From assembly GCA_013152955.1 (NCBI GenBank), contig JAADFJ010000083.1, positions 1 through 52,354 of the forward strand: a DNA stretch of 52,354 nt, given 5' to 3'. The position numbers were made by a program, and so were the translations under genes. Of this stretch, positions 1,145-38,602 are shown piece by piece. This DNA comes from Campylobacterota bacterium (lineage in GTDB: Bacteria; Campylobacterota_A; Desulfurellia; JAADFJ01). The notes under the pieces were generated by a model. It searched no databases, was not told the origin of the DNA, and saw only the letters and a program-made list of their open reading frames with translations. The first letter of the stretch is position 1. Every line of letters starts with the position of its first letter.

Positions 1145-1978
1145 TCATTGAGCCGTTTCCGAATACGCGTGAAGTCCCGGCAGGATAAATGCGACTCCCC
1201 AATACAAAAATGCCATCGAAAGAAATCCTACGATGGAAAGAAGCGCCGCCTTTTTGCCTTTCCACCCCCTTGCCACTCTTGCATGAAGATAAGCGGCATA
1301 AATCAACCATGTAATGAGCGACCAGGTTTCCTTTGGATCCCAGCTCCAATAGGATCCCCATGTAATATTCGCCCATACTCCGCCAGTTACTATACCAATA
1401 GTTAAAAAGGGCAATCCCCACCATGAAATAGCTTTATAGCTCAGATTATCCAGAGACGAAACATCCGGAATAGCTTCAAAAACAGCAATATTACTCCATT
1501 TTGATTTCGCAAGATATAAAAGAGCTGCTATAAAAGAGATTGCAAACGCCGCATATCCGATAAATGATGTTGAAACATGCACCTCCAGCCAATAAGACTG
1601 CAGAACAGGGTTAAGATATGCATATACTTTATATCTGAACGGCAAGAGATTTGTTACGAAAAAGCTTATAACTATCAAAAACGACACAAATACCCCTACC
1701 GATTTGGTTTTATAACGAAATTCAAGCCACAGATAGGCTGCTGCGAGCAACGCTGTAAAGAATACCATTGATTCATACAGGTTGCTGAACGGGACATGGT
1801 GTATTTCAATCGCTCTTACTATCAGTGTTGCCACATTGGATAAAAATCCTATAAAAAACAGAAGCGTTCCGGTATATCCAAACCATTCTTTCTTAAATAA
1901 AAAATAGATCAGATAAGATATCGCAGCGGCTATATAAAATCCAAATGTTATATCAAAAAATAAAAGCGATAATATCAT
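1145..1978 (-). CDS. ccsA: Cytochrome c biogenesis protein CcsA/ResC (System II), copy 1
   Basis: Polytopic membrane protein with the Trp-rich WGSYWSWDPKETW (WWD) motif. I chose the start MILSLLFFD by alignment with copy 2; it overlaps the ccsB stop as ATGA (1975-1978). The ORF track gives an upstream alternative at 1996. Confidence 0.85.
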   Translation of the reverse strand: MILSLLFFDITFGFYIAAAISYLIYFLFKKEWFGYTGTLLFFIGFLSNVATLIVRAIEIHHVPFSNLYESMVFFTALLAAAYLWLEFRYKTKSVGVFVSFLIVISFFVTNLLPFRYKVYAYLNPVLQSYWLEVHVSTSFIGYAAFAISFIAALLYLAKSKWSNIAVFEAIPDVSSLDNLSYKAISWWGLPFLTIGIVTGGVWANITWGSYWSWDPKETWSLITWLIYAAYLHARVARGWKGKKAALLSIVGFLSMAFLYWGVAFILPGLHAYSETAQ

Positions 1979-3330
1979 GTTTCCTCCCTTAGACAATCTT
2001 TGATTTCCTTGCTGATTCTTTCAAATTCTCTCGTAAACGAATCTTTATGTTTATATGAATTGCCGGATAAAATAAGTCTCTCGGCGTCACTATCGACATC
2101 TATATGGATCCTTCTATAATAAAGATAAAACGATAGCATAAAACCGATTATCATAATTATAGATCCAAACCAAATCAAATTTGCACCCGGATTATATGCA
2201 TATCGAAAATTGACAAAATAAATAGGATTAATTGAATAAGCAACAACCGCCATATCTCCTTTAAATTCATTAATCGAATCACCTGGATATTTTATAAATT
2301 CCCAATCAAAAGAGTTTGGAGCTCCTTTAACCTGTATTCTAACGGCAGGATTGTTATACTCGATTGATTTTGTGGTAATACGCCCGCTAACTTTGTCAAA
2401 ATAAAAATCAGGCACAAAATCGACAACCTTTACACTGTATGGACCTATTTTAGTCCATCTGTTCCATTCGGCCGTAATAGAATTTCCTACAACCTTCTGC
2501 GTTCTTTTGTCATAAAGCAGCAAAACAACGCTTTTAACTCTGTCGTATGATTTTTCATGATATTCATGAAAAAATCTGAAGCCTCCGTAGTCCAGCTTAT
2601 TGTCATGATTGAGCAGCTGCTTGTATACAACCTTGCCATTTTTTATAAAAGAGATCATCGTGTTATACTGTTTATAGCTGCCATCTGGCCAGTAATCTAT
2701 CCAGAAACGATCAAGCTTCATAACAGTATTGATTTCGGGTATTTTCTTGCTGTATCCGGCATCGATGGTAACAAAATTAACAAAATTTTTGTACGAATAG
2801 AGAGCTCCTATAAGTCCTCCCAACAAAATAATCAGTATAGACAGATGAACAACAACCATACCGAATCTGCTTAACACCCCTTTGTGGGCAAATAACGACC
2901 CGTCCGCAAGCTTATAAATCTTATAATGATGAGATTTCAGTATGCCAGATGATTGTATTATTGCGTCATATCGATTTCCGACAGAAACGCTCTCGCTGAA
3001 TTTCGGGTTGATATGAAATTTTTTTGGAACGGCAGTGCTTCTGACAATGGATGGTATTTTCAGTAATGTTGCATATATAAGATTTATAACCAAGAGAACG
3101 GTTGGGACAACCATCCAAAGCGATCCGTATATCTTGTTGATTGATAACTTTAAAATCCATTCGGCTGCCTCCGCTCCATACAGTTTGTCATAATACTGAG
3201 GCAGCTTGCCCTGCTCAACAACGGTGCCAACGATTGCAATCACCGCTATTATAAGCAGGAGGACAATTCCAAATCTTATTGATGAAAACAGGTCTTTCAA
3301 AAATTTTGCGATAACTCTTGCTGCATTCAT
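1975..3330 (-). CDS. ccsB: Cytochrome c biogenesis protein CcsB/ResB (System II), copy 1
   Basis: The 451-aa protein has an N-terminal TM pair, a large soluble domain and a C-terminal TM. It is collinear with its paralogue 9325..10665 and translationally coupled to ccsA. Confidence 0.8.
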   Translation of the reverse strand: MNAARVIAKFLKDLFSSIRFGIVLLLIIAVIAIVGTVVEQGKLPQYYDKLYGAEAAEWILKLSINKIYGSLWMVVPTVLLVINLIYATLLKIPSIVRSTAVPKKFHINPKFSESVSVGNRYDAIIQSSGILKSHHYKIYKLADGSLFAHKGVLSRFGMVVVHLSILIILLGGLIGALYSYKNFVNFVTIDAGYSKKIPEINTVMKLDRFWIDYWPDGSYKQYNTMISFIKNGKVVYKQLLNHDNKLDYGGFRFFHEYHEKSYDRVKSVVLLLYDKRTQKVVGNSITAEWNRWTKIGPYSVKVVDFVPDFYFDKVSGRITTKSIEYNNPAVRIQVKGAPNSFDWEFIKYPGDSINEFKGDMAVVAYSINPIYFVNFRYAYNPGANLIWFGSIIMIIGFMLSFYLYYRRIHIDVDSDAERLILSGNSYKHKDSFTREFERISKEIKDCLREET

Positions 3331-3490: not shown

Positions 3491-3736
3491 GCGGACGCTG
3501 CATAATAGACATATCCTCAGAAACTAAAGAAAAGGGGGAGATTTAGAAATTAGAATTTGAGGCGCCAACTGGTTAGTTTGAAAATTTTAATTTCCTGAAG
3601 ATTACCCTTTATTCGGCTTCTCTGCTGGCCCTATGAGAGTTCCGGTATGTTTACGCTTAATCTGTTGGTGCCTCGGAAGTTTGCCTTGACTATACCCCAC
3701 AAAAAACTGCAAATGTGCCTATTGTACAGTGATCTC
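3491..3736 (-). mobile_element. MITE-like element, copy a (degenerate termini)
   Basis: Termini are GCGGACGCTGCATAATAGAC ... CCTATTGTACAGTGATCTC. The interior aligns with the reverse complement of copy e, for example CAGAAACTAAAGAAAAGGGGGAGATTTAGAAATTAGAATTTGAGG and GGTTAGTTTGAAAATTTTAATTTCCTGAAGATTACCC. It contains no credible ORF. Confidence 0.75.
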
Positions 3737-3759
3737 ACAATACAAAACATAAAATAGGA

Positions 3760-4719: not shown

Positions 4720-4755
4720 TTATTCCTCCAATTTTTTTATTTCGTTTCAAGAAAC

Positions 4756-4810
4756 CACCGCACAGTAAACATGTTTACAGAAGCCGTGAATATGTTTACT
4801 GTGCAGGGTG
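4756..4810. repeat. Miniature derivative of the element family: two termini about 20 bp apart
   Basis: CACCGCACAGTAAACAT ... ATGTTTACTGTGCAGGGTG has a 13-bp perfect inverted core. The spacer contains CACAGAAGCCG, as at the R end of copy c. Confidence 0.5.
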
Positions 4811-4851
4811 CCATAATGGCAAATATCATCAGAAAATTTTTCAGGAATTTT

Positions 4852-7479: not shown

Positions 7480-7524
7480 GGCTATTTTGAAAAAATTATT
7501 TCATTTTAAAAAGACTGTCCTAAT

Positions 7525-7925
7525 GAGACTGTTGTGCAATAAACATATTCACAGTTTTTTATAAGTTTTCTATAGGATGACTTTGTTAATTCCAAGTATT
7601 TCAAAAAAGTCCAAATAGGTCTTATCAAGACGTAAATTACAGGTAACGACAGAGTTATTGTTAAAATTGTACGTAGAAGAAACCTGTCTGCGTGCGAATT
7701 TGATTGAGACTCAGGATGATCGTTTACGGGTTGCGTCCTTATTCTTAATATACCAAGACAACACCGGCGGAAATATTGCCGCCCAACCGGTAGAGCAGTT
7801 GCAGAAAGTATTGTCCGAAACGTCAAAACCCTGCCGCTGAGATTTGCCCCGAATGCGCAAAGGCAAGTTACCGAATCTCGCCCTTTCTTTGACTTCTGTG
7901 TGTCTGTTTGCTGTGCAGTGGTCTC
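7525..7925 (+). mobile_element. MITE-like element, copy b (long variant, about 400 bp)
   Basis: Termini are GAGACTGTTGTGCAATAAACA ... TGTTTGCTGTGCAGTGGTCTC. About 45 bp at each end match copy e, including CCCTTTCTTTGACTTCTGTG. The central ~300 bp is unrelated to the other copies. ORFs inside it look non-coding. Confidence 0.75.
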
Positions 7926-7955
7926 GGATATAACAAAGGATTCTGTTTTGCAGCT

Positions 7956-8504: not shown

Positions 8505-9328
8505 TATGCCCTCCCGTAGGAATGAAGCCCCGGGAGAACAAATGAGACTCCCCAATACAGGAATGCCATAGAAAGAAATCCCGCAATCGCCAGAATCGCC
8601 GCCTTTTTGTCCTTCCAGCCTCTTGTTATCCTGGCATGAAGATAAGCGGCATAAATCAACCAGGTAATGAGCGACCATGTTTCTTTAGGATCCCAGCTCC
8701 AGTAGGAACCCCATGTATAATTCGCCCATACTGCACCTGTTGCTATACCCACAGTTAAAAACGGCATTCCCCATGCAATGGATTTATAGCTCAAATTATC
8801 AAGAACCGAAGCATTCGGCAAATATTTTAGCATGAGACCATTATGCCATTCCGATTTTGCAAGATATAAAACAGCCGCTATAAAAGAAATTGCAAAAGCC
8901 GAATAGCCTACAAACATAGTTGCAACATGAATTTCAAGCCAGTATGACTGTAAAGCCGGGTTAAGATTCTCATATACCTTCATTCTGAATGGCAGAAGAT
9001 TTGTTACAAAAAAACTCAGGGAAAGAAAAACGGATAAAAACACTCCAAACATTTTAGTTTTATAACGAAACTCAAGAATAAGATAAATCAAGGCAACAAT
9101 CGCAGAAAAGAATATCATAGATTCATATAAATTGCTAAACGGTGCATGATGAACCTCAACAGTTCTTGCCGTAAGCGTAGCAATATTCGACAAAAAACCT
9201 AAAAAGAATAAAAGCGTAGAATTATACCCTATCCACTCCTTTCTGAACAAAGAGTAGGCGGCATAGGATATGGCGGCAGCCACATAAAATCCGAAGGCAA
9301 CATCAAAGAACATCAGTGAAAATATCAT
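8504..9328 (-). CDS. ccsA: Cytochrome c biogenesis protein CcsA/ResC (System II), copy 2
   Basis: It has the WGSYWSWDPKETW motif and is collinear with copy 1. An ATGA overlap joins it to ccsB copy 2. Confidence 0.88.
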   Translation of the reverse strand: MIFSLMFFDVAFGFYVAAAISYAAYSLFRKEWIGYNSTLLFFLGFLSNIATLTARTVEVHHAPFSNLYESMIFFSAIVALIYLILEFRYKTKMFGVFLSVFLSLSFFVTNLLPFRMKVYENLNPALQSYWLEIHVATMFVGYSAFAISFIAAVLYLAKSEWHNGLMLKYLPNASVLDNLSYKSIAWGMPFLTVGIATGAVWANYTWGSYWSWDPKETWSLITWLIYAAYLHARITRGWKDKKAAILAIAGFLSMAFLYWGVSFVLPGLHSYGRA

Positions 9329-10665
9329 TTTTCCTCCACCTTTTTAAGCGTATTGCAAATTTTCTTAAACTCTTTGGCAAAAAGATCTTTTTGTTTATAT
9401 GAAACGCCCGCAATTAAAAGAGATTTCTCTTCATCGTCAACGGTTATATAGATTCTTCTGTAATACATAAAAAACGACATAATAAATCCTATCACCATTA
9501 TCACAGATCCAAACCAAATCCAATTTGCACCCGGATTCTTTGCATACTGCAAACCGGTGTAATAGATAGGGGTAATTGAGGACACAATAACTGCATCCTT
9601 ACCTCCAAAACTTTTCAGTGTAAAGCCTGGGTATTTAAGAAATTCCCAAATAAACGGAGGGGTTGCTTTTGGGCCTTTGACCTGAAGTCTTACCGCCGGA
9701 TTATTATATTCAAGTGATTTTGAGGTAACATACCCCTTTTTGGCGTCAAAATAAAAATCAGGCACAAAATCAACAATTTTTATATCATACGGCCCTATAG
9801 TGCGCCACTTGTTCCATTGAGCAACTACAGGTTCCCCTACGACATTTTTCTTTTGCCTGTCATAAAGAACCATAACTGCTTCTTTTATTTTATCATACGA
9901 TTTCCCGTATCCGGCCTGAAAAAATCGCATACCGGCATAATCCATAGGATGATTGACATCTATTGTTTGAGTATGCACAACCTTGTTGTTTTTTATAATA
10001 GATAGTTTGCTGTTATACTGTTTAATGCTTCCATCAGGCCAGTAATTCATCCAAAACCTGTCAACCTTTATGGAAGCATTAATTTCGGGAACCGGTTCGG
10101 TATCTCCGGAATCAATGGCTATATAATTTTTATATCCATAAATCGCCCCTAACAGCGCTCCAAGCAAAACAATCAGTATGGACAGATGCACCACAACTGC
10201 GCCAAATCTGCTTATCACGCCTTTATGCGCAAATAACGACCCATCCTCAAGAGTATAGATTTTATAGTGATAAGATTTTAATACGGTTGAGGATTTTTCT
10301 ATGGCAATATCTTTATCTTTTATTAGAACGTTATCATTGATCTTGGAATTATGATGAAACTTCTTCGGCAGAGCAACGCTCTTAATCATGACCGGAAGTT
10401 TCGATAATGTAGCATATATAAGATTTACAATAAGAAGAGACGTAGGAATAATCATCCAGAGTGATCCGAATATTTTGTCGATTGACAATTTTACAATCCA
10501 TCCAGCTGTTGCCGACCCATATAAATCATAGTAATATTGAACAGGTTTTCCCTGCTCAACAAGCGTTCCAGCTATAGCAACGAGCACTATTACAAGAAGA
10601 AGAAAAATTCCCAACTTTGTTGACGAAAACAGATTTTTTATAAACTTAACTATATTTAGCAGCAT
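9325..10665 (-). CDS. ccsB: Cytochrome c biogenesis protein CcsB/ResB (System II), copy 2
   Basis: The 446-aa protein is collinear with 1975..3330, for example in FSS.K/RLGI..LL, HKGV.SRFG and NPGAN.IWFGS. Confidence 0.82.
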   Translation of the reverse strand: MLLNIVKFIKNLFSSTKLGIFLLLVIVLVAIAGTLVEQGKPVQYYYDLYGSATAGWIVKLSIDKIFGSLWMIIPTSLLIVNLIYATLSKLPVMIKSVALPKKFHHNSKINDNVLIKDKDIAIEKSSTVLKSYHYKIYTLEDGSLFAHKGVISRFGAVVVHLSILIVLLGALLGAIYGYKNYIAIDSGDTEPVPEINASIKVDRFWMNYWPDGSIKQYNSKLSIIKNNKVVHTQTIDVNHPMDYAGMRFFQAGYGKSYDKIKEAVMVLYDRQKKNVVGEPVVAQWNKWRTIGPYDIKIVDFVPDFYFDAKKGYVTSKSLEYNNPAVRLQVKGPKATPPFIWEFLKYPGFTLKSFGGKDAVIVSSITPIYYTGLQYAKNPGANWIWFGSVIMVIGFIMSFFMYYRRIYITVDDEEKSLLIAGVSYKQKDLFAKEFKKICNTLKKVEEK

Positions 10666-11527: not shown

Positions 11528-11627
11528 AACACTGCTCCTTAAATAACAAAACCGCTATAGATAATATAAAAACCCCTCTTTGTTTACAAGGAGAATACTT
11601 AGCAAATTTCATTCTAAAAATGGTAAT

Positions 11628-11888
11628 GAGATCGCTGTACAATAAACGCTTCCACAGAAGCCGAATAAATAGCAAGATTCAGAAATTAAAATCTGATGGA
11701 CTAACCGGTTAGTTTGAAAACTTTTATTTCCTGAAGATTGCCGGTTATTCGGCTTTCCTGCGGGCAATATGAGCTTTCCCATATGCTTATGCTAAACTTC
11801 TTTGATTAATCGATTAATCCTGCAGAAGTTTGCCTTGCCTGTGAAAAAGCTGATATTGCTGTGAAAGTGCTTATTGTGCAGTGGTCTC
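11628..11888 (-). mobile_element. MITE-like element, copy c
   Basis: Termini are GAGATCGCTGTACAATAAAC ... CTTATTGTGCAGTGGTCTC. Its reverse complement aligns along its whole length with copy e and with partial copy f. No ORF. Confidence 0.85.
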
Positions 11889-11966
11889 ATAATTGAATAA
11901 TAACAGTATAGTTCTGTTCGTCAACAAAAACTATTTAAATAATTGCGCAAAAAATAGTCGACAGAA

Positions 11967-11993: not shown

Positions 11994-12005
11994 ATAATAT
12001 ATTGA

Positions 12006-12028
12006 GGCCGCTGCGCAATAAACAGCGC
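12006..12028 (+). repeat. Orphan terminus of the element family
   Basis: GGCCGCTGCGCAATAAACAGCGC matches the L-end consensus (compare d: AAGACCGCTGCGCAGTAAAC). Confidence 0.45.
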
Positions 12029-12250
12029 ATTAATTAAATGGAGGCTCTATTTATCCATGAACAACTATCCTGAGTCTTATTGTCTTTCTTTTTTATGTGT
12101 AATCTGCTCTGCTCATGCTATTTTTTAAATCAGACCATCCTTTGTGCCAGGTTAAATTATAACTGCCAAAATCTGATCTCACTTTTGGTCATCAGGAAAA
12201 GCAGCAAAGGAAAGAATATCTAAGATTGCCGCGTCACGCTCAAGATTAAT

Positions 12251-12274
12251 GATACCGCTGTACAATAAGACAAC
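12251..12274 (+). repeat. Orphan terminus of the element family, directly after the TolC-like stop codon
   Basis: GATACCGCTGTACAATAAGACAAC; compare c: GAGATCGCTGTACAATAAAC. Confidence 0.45.
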
Positions 12275-17035: not shown

Positions 17036-19393
<2,358 letters not shown>

Positions 19394-20473
19394 TTAATTA
19401 ATAGGCATTTGAATGTATTTTAATGTATATTCAATATCATTAGGAATGAATTGTACCGGATTGTCATCAGAGTCACAGAATAAATCTATCTTATGATCTG
19501 CAACAGTTGAAAGATATTCAACAAGCATTTTTCCGTTAAGCTTAAGTTTTCTATTCTCTGTACTTTTTATCTTTATCATTTCTTTTGCAAATTCTCCTTC
19601 TTCGTTTGACGATTCTATTGATAAATTTTCACCATCGAAATTAAAAATCACACTGTGATTACCTTTTTCTGTTACAAATAAAACCTTTTTAATTGCTTTT
19701 GATAATTTATCTGCTTCGATTGTTGCCAATTTTTCATTTTCGGTATTTTGTATAATATTTTTATAGTCAGGGAAATGACCATTTATCAGGCGACTGAATA
19801 ACTTTATATTTCCGCTTTCTACTATCAAATAATCGCTTGTGACTCCTATTTTTATCTGTTCTTCATCAACAGGCATTCCAAGTAATTCCAATAGAAATTG
19901 TTTTGGTATTATTATATTAATTTCTTTTTCCATTTTTGTTGTTTGATCGTTGAAATAAGATAGTCTAAAAGAGTTTGTAGCGCAAAAAGATAGTCCTTCG
20001 TTGTTGATAACAAGATTTATTCCTTCGTATTCAGGCTTAAATGATTTTTTTGCTGTAGCGAACAATACTTTTTCTAAAGCTTTATGCAATGTTTCTTTAT
20101 TCAGGATAATGTTTGCTTCAGGAATATCGTTAAACAGATCGGGGAATAAATTGTGATCGTATGTTTTTATCTGGGATATATAAGATCCGGCTGAAATTTT
20201 AATATTATTATTAACAAAATCAAGATTTATCTTCTGATCGTCTATGAGATAAAGAATGTTGTATAATCTGTTTGCCGAAGTACATATGGTTTTTTCATCA
20301 TCAGTTGTAATAGGTACCGTTATTTTTGCTCCTATTTTTGTGTCCGTAGTAAAAAGTGTAGTAGAGTTGTTTTTAATATCTATAAAAACAGATTCCAGTA
20401 CATTTGTTCGTTTGTCTGTAAACCTGATAAGATATTTTAATGCATTTTCAAATATGTATTTTTCAATTAACAT
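19394..20473 (-). CDS. dnaN: DNA polymerase III beta sliding clamp
   Basis: The 359-aa protein has a three-domain clamp-like sequence and lies between dnaA and gyrB. Only 3 nt separate it from gyrB, so there is no recF. Confidence 0.85.
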   Translation of the reverse strand: MLIEKYIFENALKYLIRFTDKRTNVLESVFIDIKNNSTTLFTTDTKIGAKITVPITTDDEKTICTSANRLYNILYLIDDQKINLDFVNNNIKISAGSYISQIKTYDHNLFPDLFNDIPEANIILNKETLHKALEKVLFATAKKSFKPEYEGINLVINNEGLSFCATNSFRLSYFNDQTTKMEKEINIIIPKQFLLELLGMPVDEEQIKIGVTSDYLIVESGNIKLFSRLINGHFPDYKNIIQNTENEKLATIEADKLSKAIKKVLFVTEKGNHSVIFNFDGENLSIESSNEEGEFAKEMIKIKSTENRKLKLNGKMLVEYLSTVADHKIDLFCDSDDNPVQFIPNDIEYTLKYIQMPIN

Positions 20474-20721
20474 CTTTTTCTCCTTTCTATAATCTTTATA
20501 TTTTAGTCGAAGTTAGTAGTGTTTGTCAAATTGTTGATAACTGTTATTGTTGATTGATCAGACTAATAATTTCTTGTTAGAATCCGGCTGTCTTTTTTGT
20601 CTTTGTGCGATATAAAATCGTTGTAAAAAATATAATGAACGAACTATGTTGAAAAGATACTGGTTACTGACAGGTTACTGACAGGTTTTCCCTGTTTAAC
20701 TTGATATTTTTTTGTGGATAA
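20474..20721. other. Candidate oriC segment (dnaA-dnaN spacer and dnaA 3' end)
   Basis: The spacer is AT-rich. A perfect DnaA box TGTGGATAA lies at 20713-20721 and a one-mismatch box TGTTGATAA at 20532-20540. An 11-nt tandem repeat GGTTACTGACA x2.4 lies at 20662-20688. The evidence is thin, with only two boxes found by eye. Confidence 0.3.
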
Positions 20722-22078
20722 TCTTTATTTCATCGGAAAAAATCTGATTTTTATCAGATTCGGATTCTATTGTTTTTACCGCATTAATAACAGATGCATG
20801 ACTTTTCATTCCAAAATGTCTGCAGATTTCCGAATATGATTTTCCTGTTAATTTTCTTACCAGATAAATGGCAATTTGTCTTGGTTTGAGAATTTCTTTT
20901 TCTCTTCTTTTTGACAACATTTTTGATACAGTAATGTTAAAATGACCTGCAACTGCTTTTTGTATATTTTCTACTGTAATCTGCCGTTTTTTTTCAAGCA
21001 GAATACCGCTTAAAATTTCTTTTGCGAAATTTAAGGTTATATTTGCGTTCATTAATGAGGAAAATGCTCCTATTCTTATTAAAGCCCCCTCGATCTCTCT
21101 AACATTTGATGTGATTTTTGATGCTAAAAAATCGGCAACATCCTCATTGATGTCCAGATTGTTTGCTTTTGCTTTTTTATTTATAATTGCAACGCGTGTT
21201 TCATAGTCGGGGGGTCCGATCTCTGCTATCAGTCCCCATTGGAATCTGGATCTTAATCGTTCTTCAATGTTGTCGATGTCCCTGGGAAGTTTATCGCTTG
21301 TTATAACAATTTGTCCTTCAACCTGATGTAAAGCGTTAAATGTATTAAAAAACTCTTCCTGTGTCCCATGTTTTCCTGCAATAAACTGTATGTCATCTAT
21401 TAAAAGCAGATCCAGATTTCTGTAATAATGTCTAAAATTTTCATTATCTCTTCTTTTTATGGCGTCTATCAATTCATTAGTAAACTGTTCTGACGAGATA
21501 TAACAGATTTTTTTCTTTTTATCTTTAGCTACTCTGTGTCCTATAGCTTGAAGAAGGTGTGTTTTTCCGAGACCGACGCCGCCGTATATATAAAACGGAT
21601 TATATGCCGTTCCGGGGTTTGTAGCTACTGCTATTGCCGCAGCAGAGGCAAAACGATTTGAGTCTCCTACAATAAAATTATCAAATCTGTATTTATTGTT
21701 TAAACTGGAATTGCCATCGTGTCTTTTTGGAATATTAACCTGATTTTTTTTATCTATATGCCGACCCGGATCTTTGACGATAAACTGAACTTCTGTAATT
21801 TCCGAATATCTTTTTTTTGCGGTCTCCATAATCTGTTTTATACAGTTGCTTTGTATCCATTCTTTGAAAAATCTGTTAGGGAGCGTTATGGTCAGTTTGT
21901 TTTGTTTTGGAACGAGCTTTATCGGTTTGATCCAGATATCGTAATCATCCTCATTTTTTATTATTTTTTTGAGAACGGCTTTAATGTGATTGTCCAAAGA
22001 ATTTATCATTACTCTTGATAATATGGGGAAAGTTGAATTTTGCAAATCTATGTACTTGTTTTGTATGCTAAGCGGCAT
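20696..22078 (-). CDS. dnaA: Chromosomal replication initiator DnaA
   Basis: It has an AAA+ domain (GGVGLGKTHL, LLIDDIQF) and a C-terminal DNA-binding domain (HASVINAVK). No SD precedes the ATG at 22078; Met24 (ATG at 22009) is an alternative start. Confidence 0.93.
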   Translation of the reverse strand: MPLSIQNKYIDLQNSTFPILSRVMINSLDNHIKAVLKKIIKNEDDYDIWIKPIKLVPKQNKLTITLPNRFFKEWIQSNCIKQIMETAKKRYSEITEVQFIVKDPGRHIDKKNQVNIPKRHDGNSSLNNKYRFDNFIVGDSNRFASAAAIAVATNPGTAYNPFYIYGGVGLGKTHLLQAIGHRVAKDKKKKICYISSEQFTNELIDAIKRRDNENFRHYYRNLDLLLIDDIQFIAGKHGTQEEFFNTFNALHQVEGQIVITSDKLPRDIDNIEERLRSRFQWGLIAEIGPPDYETRVAIINKKAKANNLDINEDVADFLASKITSNVREIEGALIRIGAFSSLMNANITLNFAKEILSGILLEKKRQITVENIQKAVAGHFNITVSKMLSKRREKEILKPRQIAIYLVRKLTGKSYSEICRHFGMKSHASVINAVKTIESESDKNQIFSDEIKIIHKKISS

Positions 22079-22081
22079 CTT

Positions 22082-22236
22082 AAGACCGCTGCGCAGTAAA
22101 CATATTCTTAGCCTTTCATTGAGTGCTTCACGCTAAGAATATCCCGAACTAACACAGATTAGTATTCCAAATTTTAATTCTTAAATCGTACCCTTTCTTT
22201 GACTTTCGCTGATCCCGTTTATTGCGCAGCGGTCTT
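22082..22236 (+). mobile_element. MITE-like element, copy d (short variant, about 155 bp)
   Basis: Termini are (T)AAGACCGCTGCGCAGTAAAC ... GTTTATTGCGCAGCGGTCTT(A). It retains the R-end block AAATTTTAATTCTTAAATCGTACCCTTTCTTTGAC. It starts 3 nt from the annotated dnaA ATG. Confidence 0.8.
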
Positions 22237-22241
22237 ATTAA

Positions 22242-22503
22242 CTGATGTTACGCACTAAACGCAGTTTCAGCAAAAAAAGAAAGCGTTAGATACAAGGAAG
22301 GTTCTTGCCGGCGTAGCCGCAGCTACGGCGGCAAGGTTTCGACGCAGTAGATGATGCTTTATCTTTTTGCCCTTCGGGTGACAATAGTAACGCATAATTG
22401 CTGTGTTAGTGTAACTTGAAGCAGCCGGCTGCTCCTGCGTTGCACTGTCTTGCACTTATACGCTACTATTGCCACTGCAGCTGTGTTTAGTGCGTAACAT
22501 CGG
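22242..22503. mobile_element. Second-type MITE-like element (g) with 7-bp target-site duplication TTATTAA
   Basis: The inverted repeat is CTGATGTTACGCACTAAACGCAG ... CTGTGTTTAGTGCGTAACATCGG, flanked by TTATTAA at 22235-22241 and 22504-22510. The interior has a GC-rich 14-bp hairpin (22304-22335) and a 14-bp long-range pairing (22379-22392 with 22461-22474). The only ORF (62 aa) looks non-coding. Confidence 0.75.
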
Positions 22504-22506
22504 TTA

Positions 22507-23271
22507 TTAATGTATCTTATTTAAAAATTGTTTTAGTTGAGGATTATTATCGTTTGCCAATATTTCTTCAGGTGTAGCAATCTCAGTAATTTTTCCTTGA
22601 TTCATAAATGCGATCCGGTCTGCGGCTGCTTTTGCAAAATCCATTTCGTGTGTTACCACAATCATAGTCATTCCCTCTTTTGCCACCTTTTCCATAACGT
22701 CAAGTACTTCACCTATCATTTCCGGGTCAAGCGCGCTTGTTGCTTCATCAAAGAGCATCAGTTGAGGTTTCATTGCAAGAGCTCTTGCAATCGCAACACG
22801 CTGCTGCTGACCTCCCGAGAGCTGTTCCGGATAAACATCTGCTTTTTCAACTATACCTACCTTTTTAAGCAGAACGGTTGCCAGATCAACAGCATCTTTT
22901 TTATTAACTTTTTTTACCTTTATTTGACCAATTGTAATATTTTCCATGACCGTAAGATGCGGAAAAAGATTGAAATGCTGAAAAACCATACCGATTTTAG
23001 TTCGCAGTTTTGTAGGCTTGGTCTTTTTGTTAAAAATATCGGTTCCTAAAACTTCTATTGATCCTGAATTTATCTCTTCAAGGCGGTTCAGCGTTCTTAA
23101 AAAAGTACTTTTTCCTGAACCTGATGCACCGATAATTACTAAGACCTCTCCATAATCCACATTTAAAGAAACACCGTTTAAAGCTTTGATTTCGTTTGGA
23201 TATACCTTATAAATATTGCGTGCCCGAACCGCATACTTTTTATCTGTCACTTTTTGCCATTTTCCTTTCAA
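22507..23271 (-). CDS. Polar amino-acid ABC transporter ATP-binding protein
   Basis: It has Walker A GASGSGKST, the signature LSGGQQQRVAIARAL and Walker B LMLFDEATSALD. Confidence 0.9.
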   Translation of the reverse strand: MKGKWQKVTDKKYAVRARNIYKVYPNEIKALNGVSLNVDYGEVLVIIGASGSGKSTFLRTLNRLEEINSGSIEVLGTDIFNKKTKPTKLRTKIGMVFQHFNLFPHLTVMENITIGQIKVKKVNKKDAVDLATVLLKKVGIVEKADVYPEQLSGGQQQRVAIARALAMKPQLMLFDEATSALDPEMIGEVLDVMEKVAKEGMTMIVVTHEMDFAKAAADRIAFMNQGKITEIATPEEILANDNNPQLKQFLNKIH

Positions 23272-26418: not shown

Positions 26419-26479
26419 AACTCTTCCTTTCATAAAATATGATTTTATATAATCGGATGCGAATTACAATAATTTTCTC

Positions 26480-26548
26480 TTGACATGCAATTTTTAACAG
26501 GTATAGTTGTTATCAAATAGTTTGATACGAAACTATTTGATAACAACT
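26480..26548 (+). promoter_or_regulatory. Promoter TTGACA-16-TATAGT overlapped by a 44-bp perfect palindrome (19-bp arms, 6-nt centre)
   Basis: -35 is at 26480-26485 and -10 at 26502-26507. The arms are AGTTGTTATCAAATAGTTT (26505-26523) and AAACTATTTGATAACAACT (26530-26548). The RBS AAGGGGG and the ATG at 26565 follow. Confidence 0.6.
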
Positions 26549-26564
26549 TATAAGGGGGTGCCGC

Positions 26565-38125: not shown

Positions 38126-38279
38126 GGTATTAAGGATAACTTAGTTAATACTCACTTTGCGCGCTAAATAGTAATTATATAAGGGGGACTATTGATGCAT
38201 GGGTAAGCAGCAGTGCATACTCTAATTTTTCTCAAAGAACTGTTTAACGCGCAGGGTGAACTTATATTGTTATATTATG

Positions 38280-38543
38280 AGACCACTGCACAATAAACAA
38301 ATCCACAACTTTTTATGAGGTTTTCTATAGACAAGGCAAACTTCTGAAGGACTAACGGGTTAATTCAAAGAAGTTTAACGAAAAGTATATGGGAAACCAC
38401 ATAAAGCCCGCAGGGAAGTCAAATAAAGGGTAATCTTCAGGAAATTAAAATTCTCAAACTAACCGGTTAGTACCTCAAATTTTAATTTCTAAATCTCACC
38501 CTTTCTTTGACTTCTGTGAATCCGCTTATTGTGCAGTGGTCTC
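38280..38543 (+). mobile_element. MITE-like element, copy e (best-preserved reference copy)
   Basis: It has near-perfect 20-bp terminal inverted repeats, GAGACCACTGCACAATAAAC ... CTTATTGTGCAGTGGTCTC. An internal long palindrome lies at 38441-38489. No ORF. It sits between a promoter and the benzoate-CoA ligase gene. Confidence 0.88.
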
Positions 38544-38602
38544 ATGAATGAAGAGTGCGAAGATATTCATGCCCTTCGCATGGATAAAATAGGGGGAGTA
38601 AT

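Follow-up and report, generated by a model that had tools for sequence, protein, structure and literature searches.

Introduction

Bacterial MITEs, or miniature inverted-repeat transposable elements, include the Correia elements of Neisseria, ERIC/IRU, RUP and the cyanobacterial Nezha. MITEAba12, another bacterial MITE, has its own tips and its own target duplication (PMC6382973). Among insertion sequences (IS), the target duplication is 5 bp for ISAba11 (PMC7885321) and 4 bp for classical IS701 (PMC2266710). Here we analysed a stretch of 52,354 nt from a Campylobacterota bacterium (contig JAADFJ010000083.1), hereafter the window; coordinates and copy counts refer to this 52-kb window unless stated otherwise. 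Upstream of its replication-initiator gene dnaA lie two repeat-framed blocks, element d next to dnaA and element g beyond it, followed by the gene for an ATP-binding cassette (ABC) transporter ATPase. We consider it about 85% probable that d and g are two non-autonomous transposable elements inserted between the ATPase stop codon and the native dnaA leader, and that dnaA is translated from ATG 22009 with a promoter-like site of its own.

Results

The closest relative carries an empty site for both elements

No record was identical to the window's DnaA, in either start version, or to its DnaN. A search with the DnaA protein identified three close relatives. The closest DnaA (P0002) is 78% identical and is encoded on three contigs (L050–L052). 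These contigs and the window have the same gene order, consisting of a tRNA-synthetase-like gene, a small open reading frame (ORF), the genes for a substrate-binding protein, a permease and the ATPase, and then dnaA, dnaN, gyrB and gyrA. L050 is colinear with window positions 10354–32618 (about 22 kb) at 72–80% nucleotide identity. In all three contigs the distance from the ATPase stop to the dnaA ATG is 62 bp. The corresponding distance in the window, from the ATPase stop to ATG 22009 (22010–22506), is 497 bp, the sum of 155 bp (d), 269 bp (g plus one copy of its flanking duplication) and 73 bp.

We removed d, g and one TTATTAA from the window in silico and aligned the remaining sequence to L050. 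The two sequences aligned end to end, from the 3' end of the ATPase gene through the spacer and into dnaA. The spacer of L050–L052 is an empty site for both d and g, and because the closest relative has neither block at the orthologous site, both blocks are insertions. The original prediction, made from the window sequence alone, had pointed to close relatives as the place to look for alleles free of d or g; L050–L052 lack both.

In the relatives whose DnaA is 72% identical, a different gene, of the nucleoside phosphorylase family, precedes dnaA, and the spacer is only 0–23 bp (L053 2807–2829, L055 2198–2199). The upstream neighbourhood of dnaA is thus not conserved in this lineage.

Element g duplicates a 7-bp AT-rich target

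The positions predicted for d, g and the two TTATTAA repeats were confirmed by reading the sequence (Table 1). The arms of g, CTGATGTTACGCACTAAAC and CCGATGTTACGCACTAAAC, match at 18 of 19 positions. The 17-mer core of these ends occurs just twice in the window, at the two ends of g, whereas 0.14 occurrences are expected by chance, and the window contains one g copy. The ORFs within g are only 40–66 codons long and are not conserved between copies, and its 262 bp hold no transposase gene. The right TTATTAA had been described as the double stop of the ATPase gene. This proved correct, as T-TAA-TAA on the minus strand comprises the last base of a His codon, the stop codon (22507–22509) and a second TAA. 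Since TTATTAA is near-palindromic (reverse complement TTAATAA), the repeats around the single window copy might instead belong to longer inverted repeats, and it is the other copies that decide.

We scanned one genome per species with the 17-mer and metagenomes with an 18-mer. The genome scan found the g tip at 49 loci and the metagenome scan at 42, across several phyla, and all genuine matches carried the full tip YTGATGTTACGCACTAAAC. The hosts included Saprospiraceae, Francisella, Thiotrichales, Thiomargarita, a Chlorobiota genome bin, a Hippea bin and the 'Campylobacterales' bin CAZAPZ01, which also encodes P0004, the 72%-identical DnaA. Many of the loci were at contig ends, as expected of multi-copy repeats. 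Full-length homologues of g were present at unrelated sites, three of them 95% identical (L088, L092 and L093) and one 87% identical (L013); Francisella-type copies (L004, L077, L057 and L058) were about 73% identical.

Exact 7-bp duplications recurred at these copies. TTATTAA was duplicated at five independent sites (the window, L025/L090, L042, L088 and L092), and ATTATAA (L093), TTAATAA (L096) and TAACTTA (L016) were found at others. When 86 distinct flanks were compared, exactly seven positions deviated from background base composition; as a logo, these positions read T T A W T A A. The recurring duplications and the seven-position logo indicated that the duplication is real, that it is 7 bp long and that the target is a preferred AT-rich palindrome. 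The check at further g copies that the original prediction had suggested thus yielded four different 7-mers, each exactly duplicated.

The scans also uncovered other elements with g-type tips. A 52-bp minimal element (L025 2949–3000, L090 1423–1474) consists of two 19-nt tips and a short linker, with TTATTAA on both sides. Saprospiraceae bins (L002, L016, L023, L042 and many JAYTUR01 contig ends) carry a 201–221-bp MITE that has the left tip of g but differs in its core, which is unrelated, and in its right repeat, which is shorter; this MITE probably breaks assemblies, because it is often found at contig ends. In a Francisella genome bin (L028 6143–6835), a solo g-type tip provides a nucleosidase-like gene with its last codons and stop, showing that the built-in TAA of the tip can terminate host genes. 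In addition, the junction of target and tip reads TAACTGA, and the hosts overlap with genomes that carry TAACTGA repeats (Beggiatoaceae/cyanobacterial; PMC4679880, PMC4853749). A link to these heptamer repeats was rejected, with 0 tandem TAACTGA in the fetched loci and five single copies in the window versus about 6.4 expected by chance.

The parent elements of g belong to the ISAba11 subgroup

Only unrelated host genes were found beside g-type tips in the genome loci, and all-against-all clustering of their ORFs gave no recurrent gene. Searching plasmids with the tip led us to autonomous elements from three sources: Stanieria, Acinetobacter schindleri and a metagenome (L069). The Stanieria plasmid element is 1095 bp long, has the tips CTGATGTTACGCA, of which 13 nt are as in g, and encodes a 361-aa transposase. 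The A. schindleri element, whose tip is CTGATGTTACGCAG, is flanked by a 7-bp duplication of TTATTTA. Together, these two elements have 13–14 nt of the tip in common with g. The L069 contig consists essentially of a single element of 1165 bp; this element encodes a complete 361-aa transposase, and its left tip and the 19-mer of g are identical. Each of these elements, and ISAba11 as well, has its transposase stop (GCG TAA) within the TTACGCA core of the right inverted repeat.

We compared the transposases with NF049921, the NCBIfam model for the ISAba11 subgroup of the IS701 family (cutoff 250 bits). The scores were 339 bits for Stanieria, 342 for A. schindleri and 325 for L069, against 396 for ISAba11 itself. 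Pfam DDE_5 also matched, and the identity between the clade transposases and the ISAba11 transposase was only 24–26%. The ISAba11 copy in pAC1530 has the 5-bp repeat TATAG on either side. The 7-bp duplication led us to file g under a distinct clade of the ISAba11 subgroup and not under ISAba11 itself; judged by its tips and by the transposases of elements that share them, g is a MITE of this clade within the IS701 family. That g is a MITE is also evident from its own features: it is small, has inverted repeats and a duplication of fixed length, occurs in several copies, is missing from an empty site and has autonomous counterparts with matching ends.

dnaA starts downstream of both insertions

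The closest DnaA homologues (72–78% identity) are 435–436 aa long and cover 94–95% of the 460-aa ORF in the window. In a multiple alignment, every homologue began at Met24 of this ORF (ATG 22009), and none carried the 23-residue extension. The 69 nt from ATG 22078 to ATG 22009 aligned with the non-coding spacer of the relative. Judged by these alignments, the true dnaA start is ATG 22009, 69 nt inside the annotated start at 22078. Met24 had been offered as an alternative in the original prediction, and it is the better start, since all homologues begin there. With dnaA starting at ATG 22009, positions 22010–22081 are a native leader that is part of neither element. The claim that d and g make up the whole dnaA spacer was right in that both elements are real, but it applies only to a start at ATG 22078, as these 72 nt are native.

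The leader contains a −35 sequence TTGCAA (22045–22040), a 16-nt spacer and a −10 sequence TATTAT (22023–22018), the end of which is 8 nt from ATG 22009. It is the sole promoter-like site on the dnaA strand in 21900–22650, and the scan of this region found none on that strand within d or g. At the equivalent site the relative has TTTACA-16-TATTAT, ending 7 nt before its dnaA ATG, so that the position of the −10 sequence is conserved. dnaA most likely keeps its own promoter. These consensus matches, together with the conserved −10 position and the absence of a Shine–Dalgarno sequence, suggest that the dnaA mRNA is leaderless or near-leaderless.

According to the original prediction, dnaA starts at ATG 22078, the spacer is all element DNA, and transcription comes from a promoter in d or g or from read-through of the ABC operon. 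ATG 22078 does open the longest ORF, and the 0–23-bp spacers in the 72%-identical relatives make co-transcription with an upstream gene plausible in the lineage. Against it stand the common start of the homologues at Met24, the alignment of the 69 nt between the two ATGs with non-coding DNA, and the lack of any minus-strand promoter-like site in d or g. Moreover, no Shine–Dalgarno sequence precedes ATG 22078, a point that the prediction itself had made and that we confirmed directly from the sequence. We regard this model as highly improbable. Its consequence for the promoter does not hold, since the dnaA ORF it was built on is too long; the promoter-like site is in the native 72-nt leader and not in either element.

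Element d belongs to an abundant repeat family

The arms of d, AAGACCGCTGCGCAGTAAAC and the reverse complement of GTTTATTGCGCAGCGGTCTT, match at 19 of 20 positions; d becomes 157 bp long (22081–22237) if the shared TAAGACC tips are included. The d-type tip sequence is ATGAGACCACTGCACAATAAAC, and the family tips read (AT)GAGACCRCTGCRCAATAAAC. Termini matching GACCRCTGCRCARTAAAC with no more than three mismatches occur 12 times in the window, versus 0.14 expected by chance. They define about eight copies (at least seven) in 52 kb, ranging from 59 to about 400 bp and containing long internal hairpins; some of the copies are decayed (Table 1). The whole genome may hold hundreds of copies. When folded, the copy next to dnaA forms a closed hairpin domain (z = −6.1). 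No d-type termini were found in the syntenic 21 kb of L050.

We considered whether d is not a transposon but a host-maintained palindromic repeat of the repetitive extragenic palindromic (REP)/bacterial interspersed mosaic element (BIME) type, serving in mRNA stabilization, termination or nucleoid organization. The very high density of copies (at least seven in 52 kb, all intergenic) and their modular build with long internal hairpins are consistent with this, as are the missing parent element and the lack of a clear target duplication; around five paired copies there was no more than a 2–3-nt AT-rich repeat (TAA/TAA at 11626–11890) and nothing consistent. REP elements are, however, far shorter than d and lack long terminal inverted repeats. 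In the d family, terminal inverted repeats of about 20–22 bp frame cores of 59 to about 400 bp, a hallmark of transposase-recognized ends, and the 78%-identical relative has no such element in its orthologous spacers. A REP/BIME-type repeat is therefore unlikely, and d is best called a MITE-like family that would be moved by a transposase. Integron attC sites were also tried and rejected, as the d termini do not fit RYYYAAC/GTTRRRY.

A kinship between d and g had been proposed from the likeness of their subterminal sequences. The dnaA-proximal d does match g at 9 of 11 positions, but the family consensus CTGCACAATAAAC aligns to ACGCACTAAAC of g only with a gap. Between CACTGCA in d and the TTACGCA core of the ISAba11 group there is no more than a loose correspondence. 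A transposition machinery common to d and g is possible, but the sequences leave it unsupported. The left duplication copy of g overlaps 2–3 nt of the d tip, which hints that g was inserted after d; this order hinges on the exact end of the d tip.

The core of g forms three conserved hairpins

The predicted minimum free energy of g is about −115 kcal/mol (z about −10), and the two strands fold equally well. In a consensus fold of ten g copies, the inverted repeats form a closing stem around three internal hairpins, and 95.5% of the cells pair. Both sides had changed in 32 of 78 pairs, compared with 18.4 ± 2.4 in shuffled alignments (0 of 500 reached 32) and 2–10 in slid controls. Window-type and Francisella-type copies, at about 73% identity, have kept every helix. 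A strand-specific RNA, suggested by G–U pairs, was rejected on the equal folding of the strands.

These values raised the possibility that the g core is a functional structured module, acting as RNA or single-stranded DNA, for example by insulating transcripts, by providing a site for their processing or by forming a structure that transposition requires, and that it has been selected across phyla. The excess of double-sided changes, the retention of all helices and the extreme folding energy speak for such a module. Yet a single deep split, set off by three Francisella-type sequences, and two or three divergent copies account for essentially all of the covariation, the equal folding of both strands gives no pointer to RNA, and no Rfam family matched. 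Templated repair can also keep palindrome arms complementary in the absence of function. Furthermore, MITEs with the same tips have an unrelated core (Saprospiraceae, 201 bp) or none (the 52-bp form), indicating that the g core is not required for mobility. It is thus distinctly unlikely that the core is a selected structured cassette kept on ISAba11-type ends across the window lineage, Francisella and the Chlorobiota bin. If it were one, g would represent a MITE-borne, portable structural cassette that lands preferentially on tandem stops (TTAWTAA), where it could, for example, insulate or process read-through transcripts. We prefer to view g as a MITE whose core is dispensable for its movement.

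The spacer is not an origin of replication

The d/g spacer resembles an origin of replication (oriC) or an autoregulated dnaA leader in its position, directly upstream of dnaA in a dnaA–dnaN–gyrB cluster. It differs in having no cluster of DnaA boxes and in that the element sequence is absent from the closest relative. DnaA boxes had been reported missing from the spacer, and we likewise found 0 boxes with one mismatch or fewer in 22010–22506; no cluster was detected in the spacer or nearby, even with relaxed patterns. Over the whole window, boxes resembling TTATCCACA numbered 21 versus 14.1 ± 4.1, which is not above chance. Because a DnaA-box cluster is absent from the spacer and its surroundings, the d/g spacer is, on sequence grounds, not oriC.

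Other features of the window

The ATPase gene is the final member of a substrate-binding protein/permease/ATPase operon, and the gap between it and the longest dnaA ORF is 428 nt. Coordinates of the features are listed in Table 1.

Table 1. Coordinates of genes, elements and related features in the window
Feature	Position	Strand	Remarks
gyrB	17036–19390	minus	from ORF list
dnaN	19394–20473	minus	from ORF list
dnaA, longest ORF	20696–22078	minus	460 aa, opened by ATG 22078
dnaA coding sequence, corrected start	20696–22009	minus	437 aa, from Met24 of the 460-aa ORF; homologues 72–78% identical align from Met24
Sigma-70-like promoter candidate	22018–22045	minus	consensus match only, putative function
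Native dnaA leader, non-element DNA	22010–22081	minus	colinear with the 62-bp spacer of the relative (in-silico excision alignment); holds the spurious ATG 22076–22078
Element d, 155 bp	22082–22236		inverted repeats 22082–22101 and 22217–22236
Left 7-bp duplication copy, TTATTAA	22235–22241		first 2–3 nt shared with the outer end of d
Element g, 262 bp	22242–22503		inverted repeats 22242–22260 and 22485–22503 around a three-hairpin core
Right 7-bp duplication copy, TTATTAA	22504–22510		overlaps the ATPase stop and second TAA; fits the TTAWTAA target logo
ABC-transporter ATPase gene	22507–23271	minus	ends CAT TAA TAA; from ORF list; Pfam ABC_tran in relatives L050–L052
d-family copies	~3497–3738, 4750–4813, 7524–7926, 11626–11890, 12003–12270, 22082–22236, 38277–38545, 52264–window end (52354)		all intergenic

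An Rfam search of the whole window gave no match at gathering thresholds, and in 21900–22700 it gave only chance-level matches (E 0.7–9). No tRNA or tmRNA genes were found in the window. In the dnaA–dnaN spacer (20474–20695), AACCTGTCAGT is repeated in tandem directly after the dnaA stop, in two exact copies and a degenerate one; the only perfect DnaA box near this spacer is at 20713–20721, inside the dnaA 3' end. The sign of the GC skew changes near 26 kb, which is also where the genes diverge in orientation. Near this point, a divergent promoter spacer (26434–26564) contains a perfect, operator-like 18-bp inverted repeat, GTTGTTATCAAATAGTTT-6-AAACTATTTGATAACAAC. A block of paralogous genes, about 1.8 kb long, is also present twice in the window (1170–2964 and 8523–10305), with the copies 7.35 kb apart and 72–84% identical in nucleotide sequence.

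Discussion

The locus is an ordinary double MITE insertion of a well-documented kind. The original spacer between the ATPase gene and dnaA would have been about 60–75 bp long, and two elements would have landed in it. We propose that a DDE transposase of the ISAba11 subgroup moved g in trans; this transposase would recognize the tip CTGATGTTACGCA(CTAAAC) and cut a preferred palindromic, AT-rich TTAWTAA with a 7-bp stagger. The target here would have been T-TAA-TAA at the end of the ATPase gene, so that the stop codons were duplicated and the coding sequence was left undamaged. Element d would be a member of another MITE-like family, one specific to the lineage and present in very many copies in this genome. 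Both insertions lie upstream of the native leader, leaving the dnaA start at 22009 with a promoter-like site directly before it. The insertions are probably near-neutral for dnaA, because both lie upstream of this leader and its promoter-like site. Their likeliest side effect would be on transcripts that read through from the ABC operon, any of which would gain 424 bp of sequence that forms very stable hairpins.

Several observations weigh against this reading. The g clade duplicates 7 bp (TTAWTAA), as opposed to 5 bp for ISAba11 and 4 bp for classical IS701. No transposase of the g or d family was found in the 52-kb window, and its supply in trans from this genome is assumed. For d, no consistent target duplication was found in the flanks of the five paired copies, and the search for an autonomous relative in the window, 108 fetched loci, plasmids and viral contigs gave chance matches only. 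The promoter was called from a match at 9 of 12 consensus positions, in DNA that is AT-rich, and the scanned region had three sites versus 1.6 expected. Finally, the pairing of the internal hairpins of g is kept by compensatory changes, which hints at a constraint beyond the decay of a dead element.

The analysis has consequences for annotation and for the interpretation of similar loci. The annotated dnaA start is corrected from 22078 to 22009, and the replication-initiator gene has not been captured by mobile DNA but seems to keep its own promoter. Element g represents a previously undescribed MITE family, tied to an ISAba11-like clade of the IS701 family with a 7-bp palindromic TTAWTAA target. 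Tandem stop codons naturally create TTAWTAA, which offers a simple reason for the harmless build-up of g-type elements just after genes. The tip CTGATGTTACGCAC can serve as a marker of contig breaks in metagenome-assembled genomes from several phyla. The general understanding of transposition and of replication control is unchanged by these findings.

Among known systems, ISAba11 is close to the autonomous elements with g tips in several respects. These elements are about 1.1 kb long and encode a single DDE transposase that scores above the NF049921 cutoff; the ISAba11 tip, TAGGACTTACGCAT, has the TTACGCA core that they also have; and the target duplications of both are short and AT-rich. Element g differs from ISAba11 in lacking a transposase. 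Compared with Correia, ERIC/IRU, RUP, MITEAba12 and Nezha, d and g have different tips, and the parent family and target are also different, the target of g being the 7-bp TTAWTAA. Correia elements duplicate TA. On the dnaA strand, no promoter was found in d or g. In other respects, d and g are like these MITEs: they are non-coding, 50–400 bp long and bounded by terminal inverted repeats, they occur in many intergenic copies with strong hairpin potential, and they insert near gene ends, with possible effects on neighbouring transcripts.

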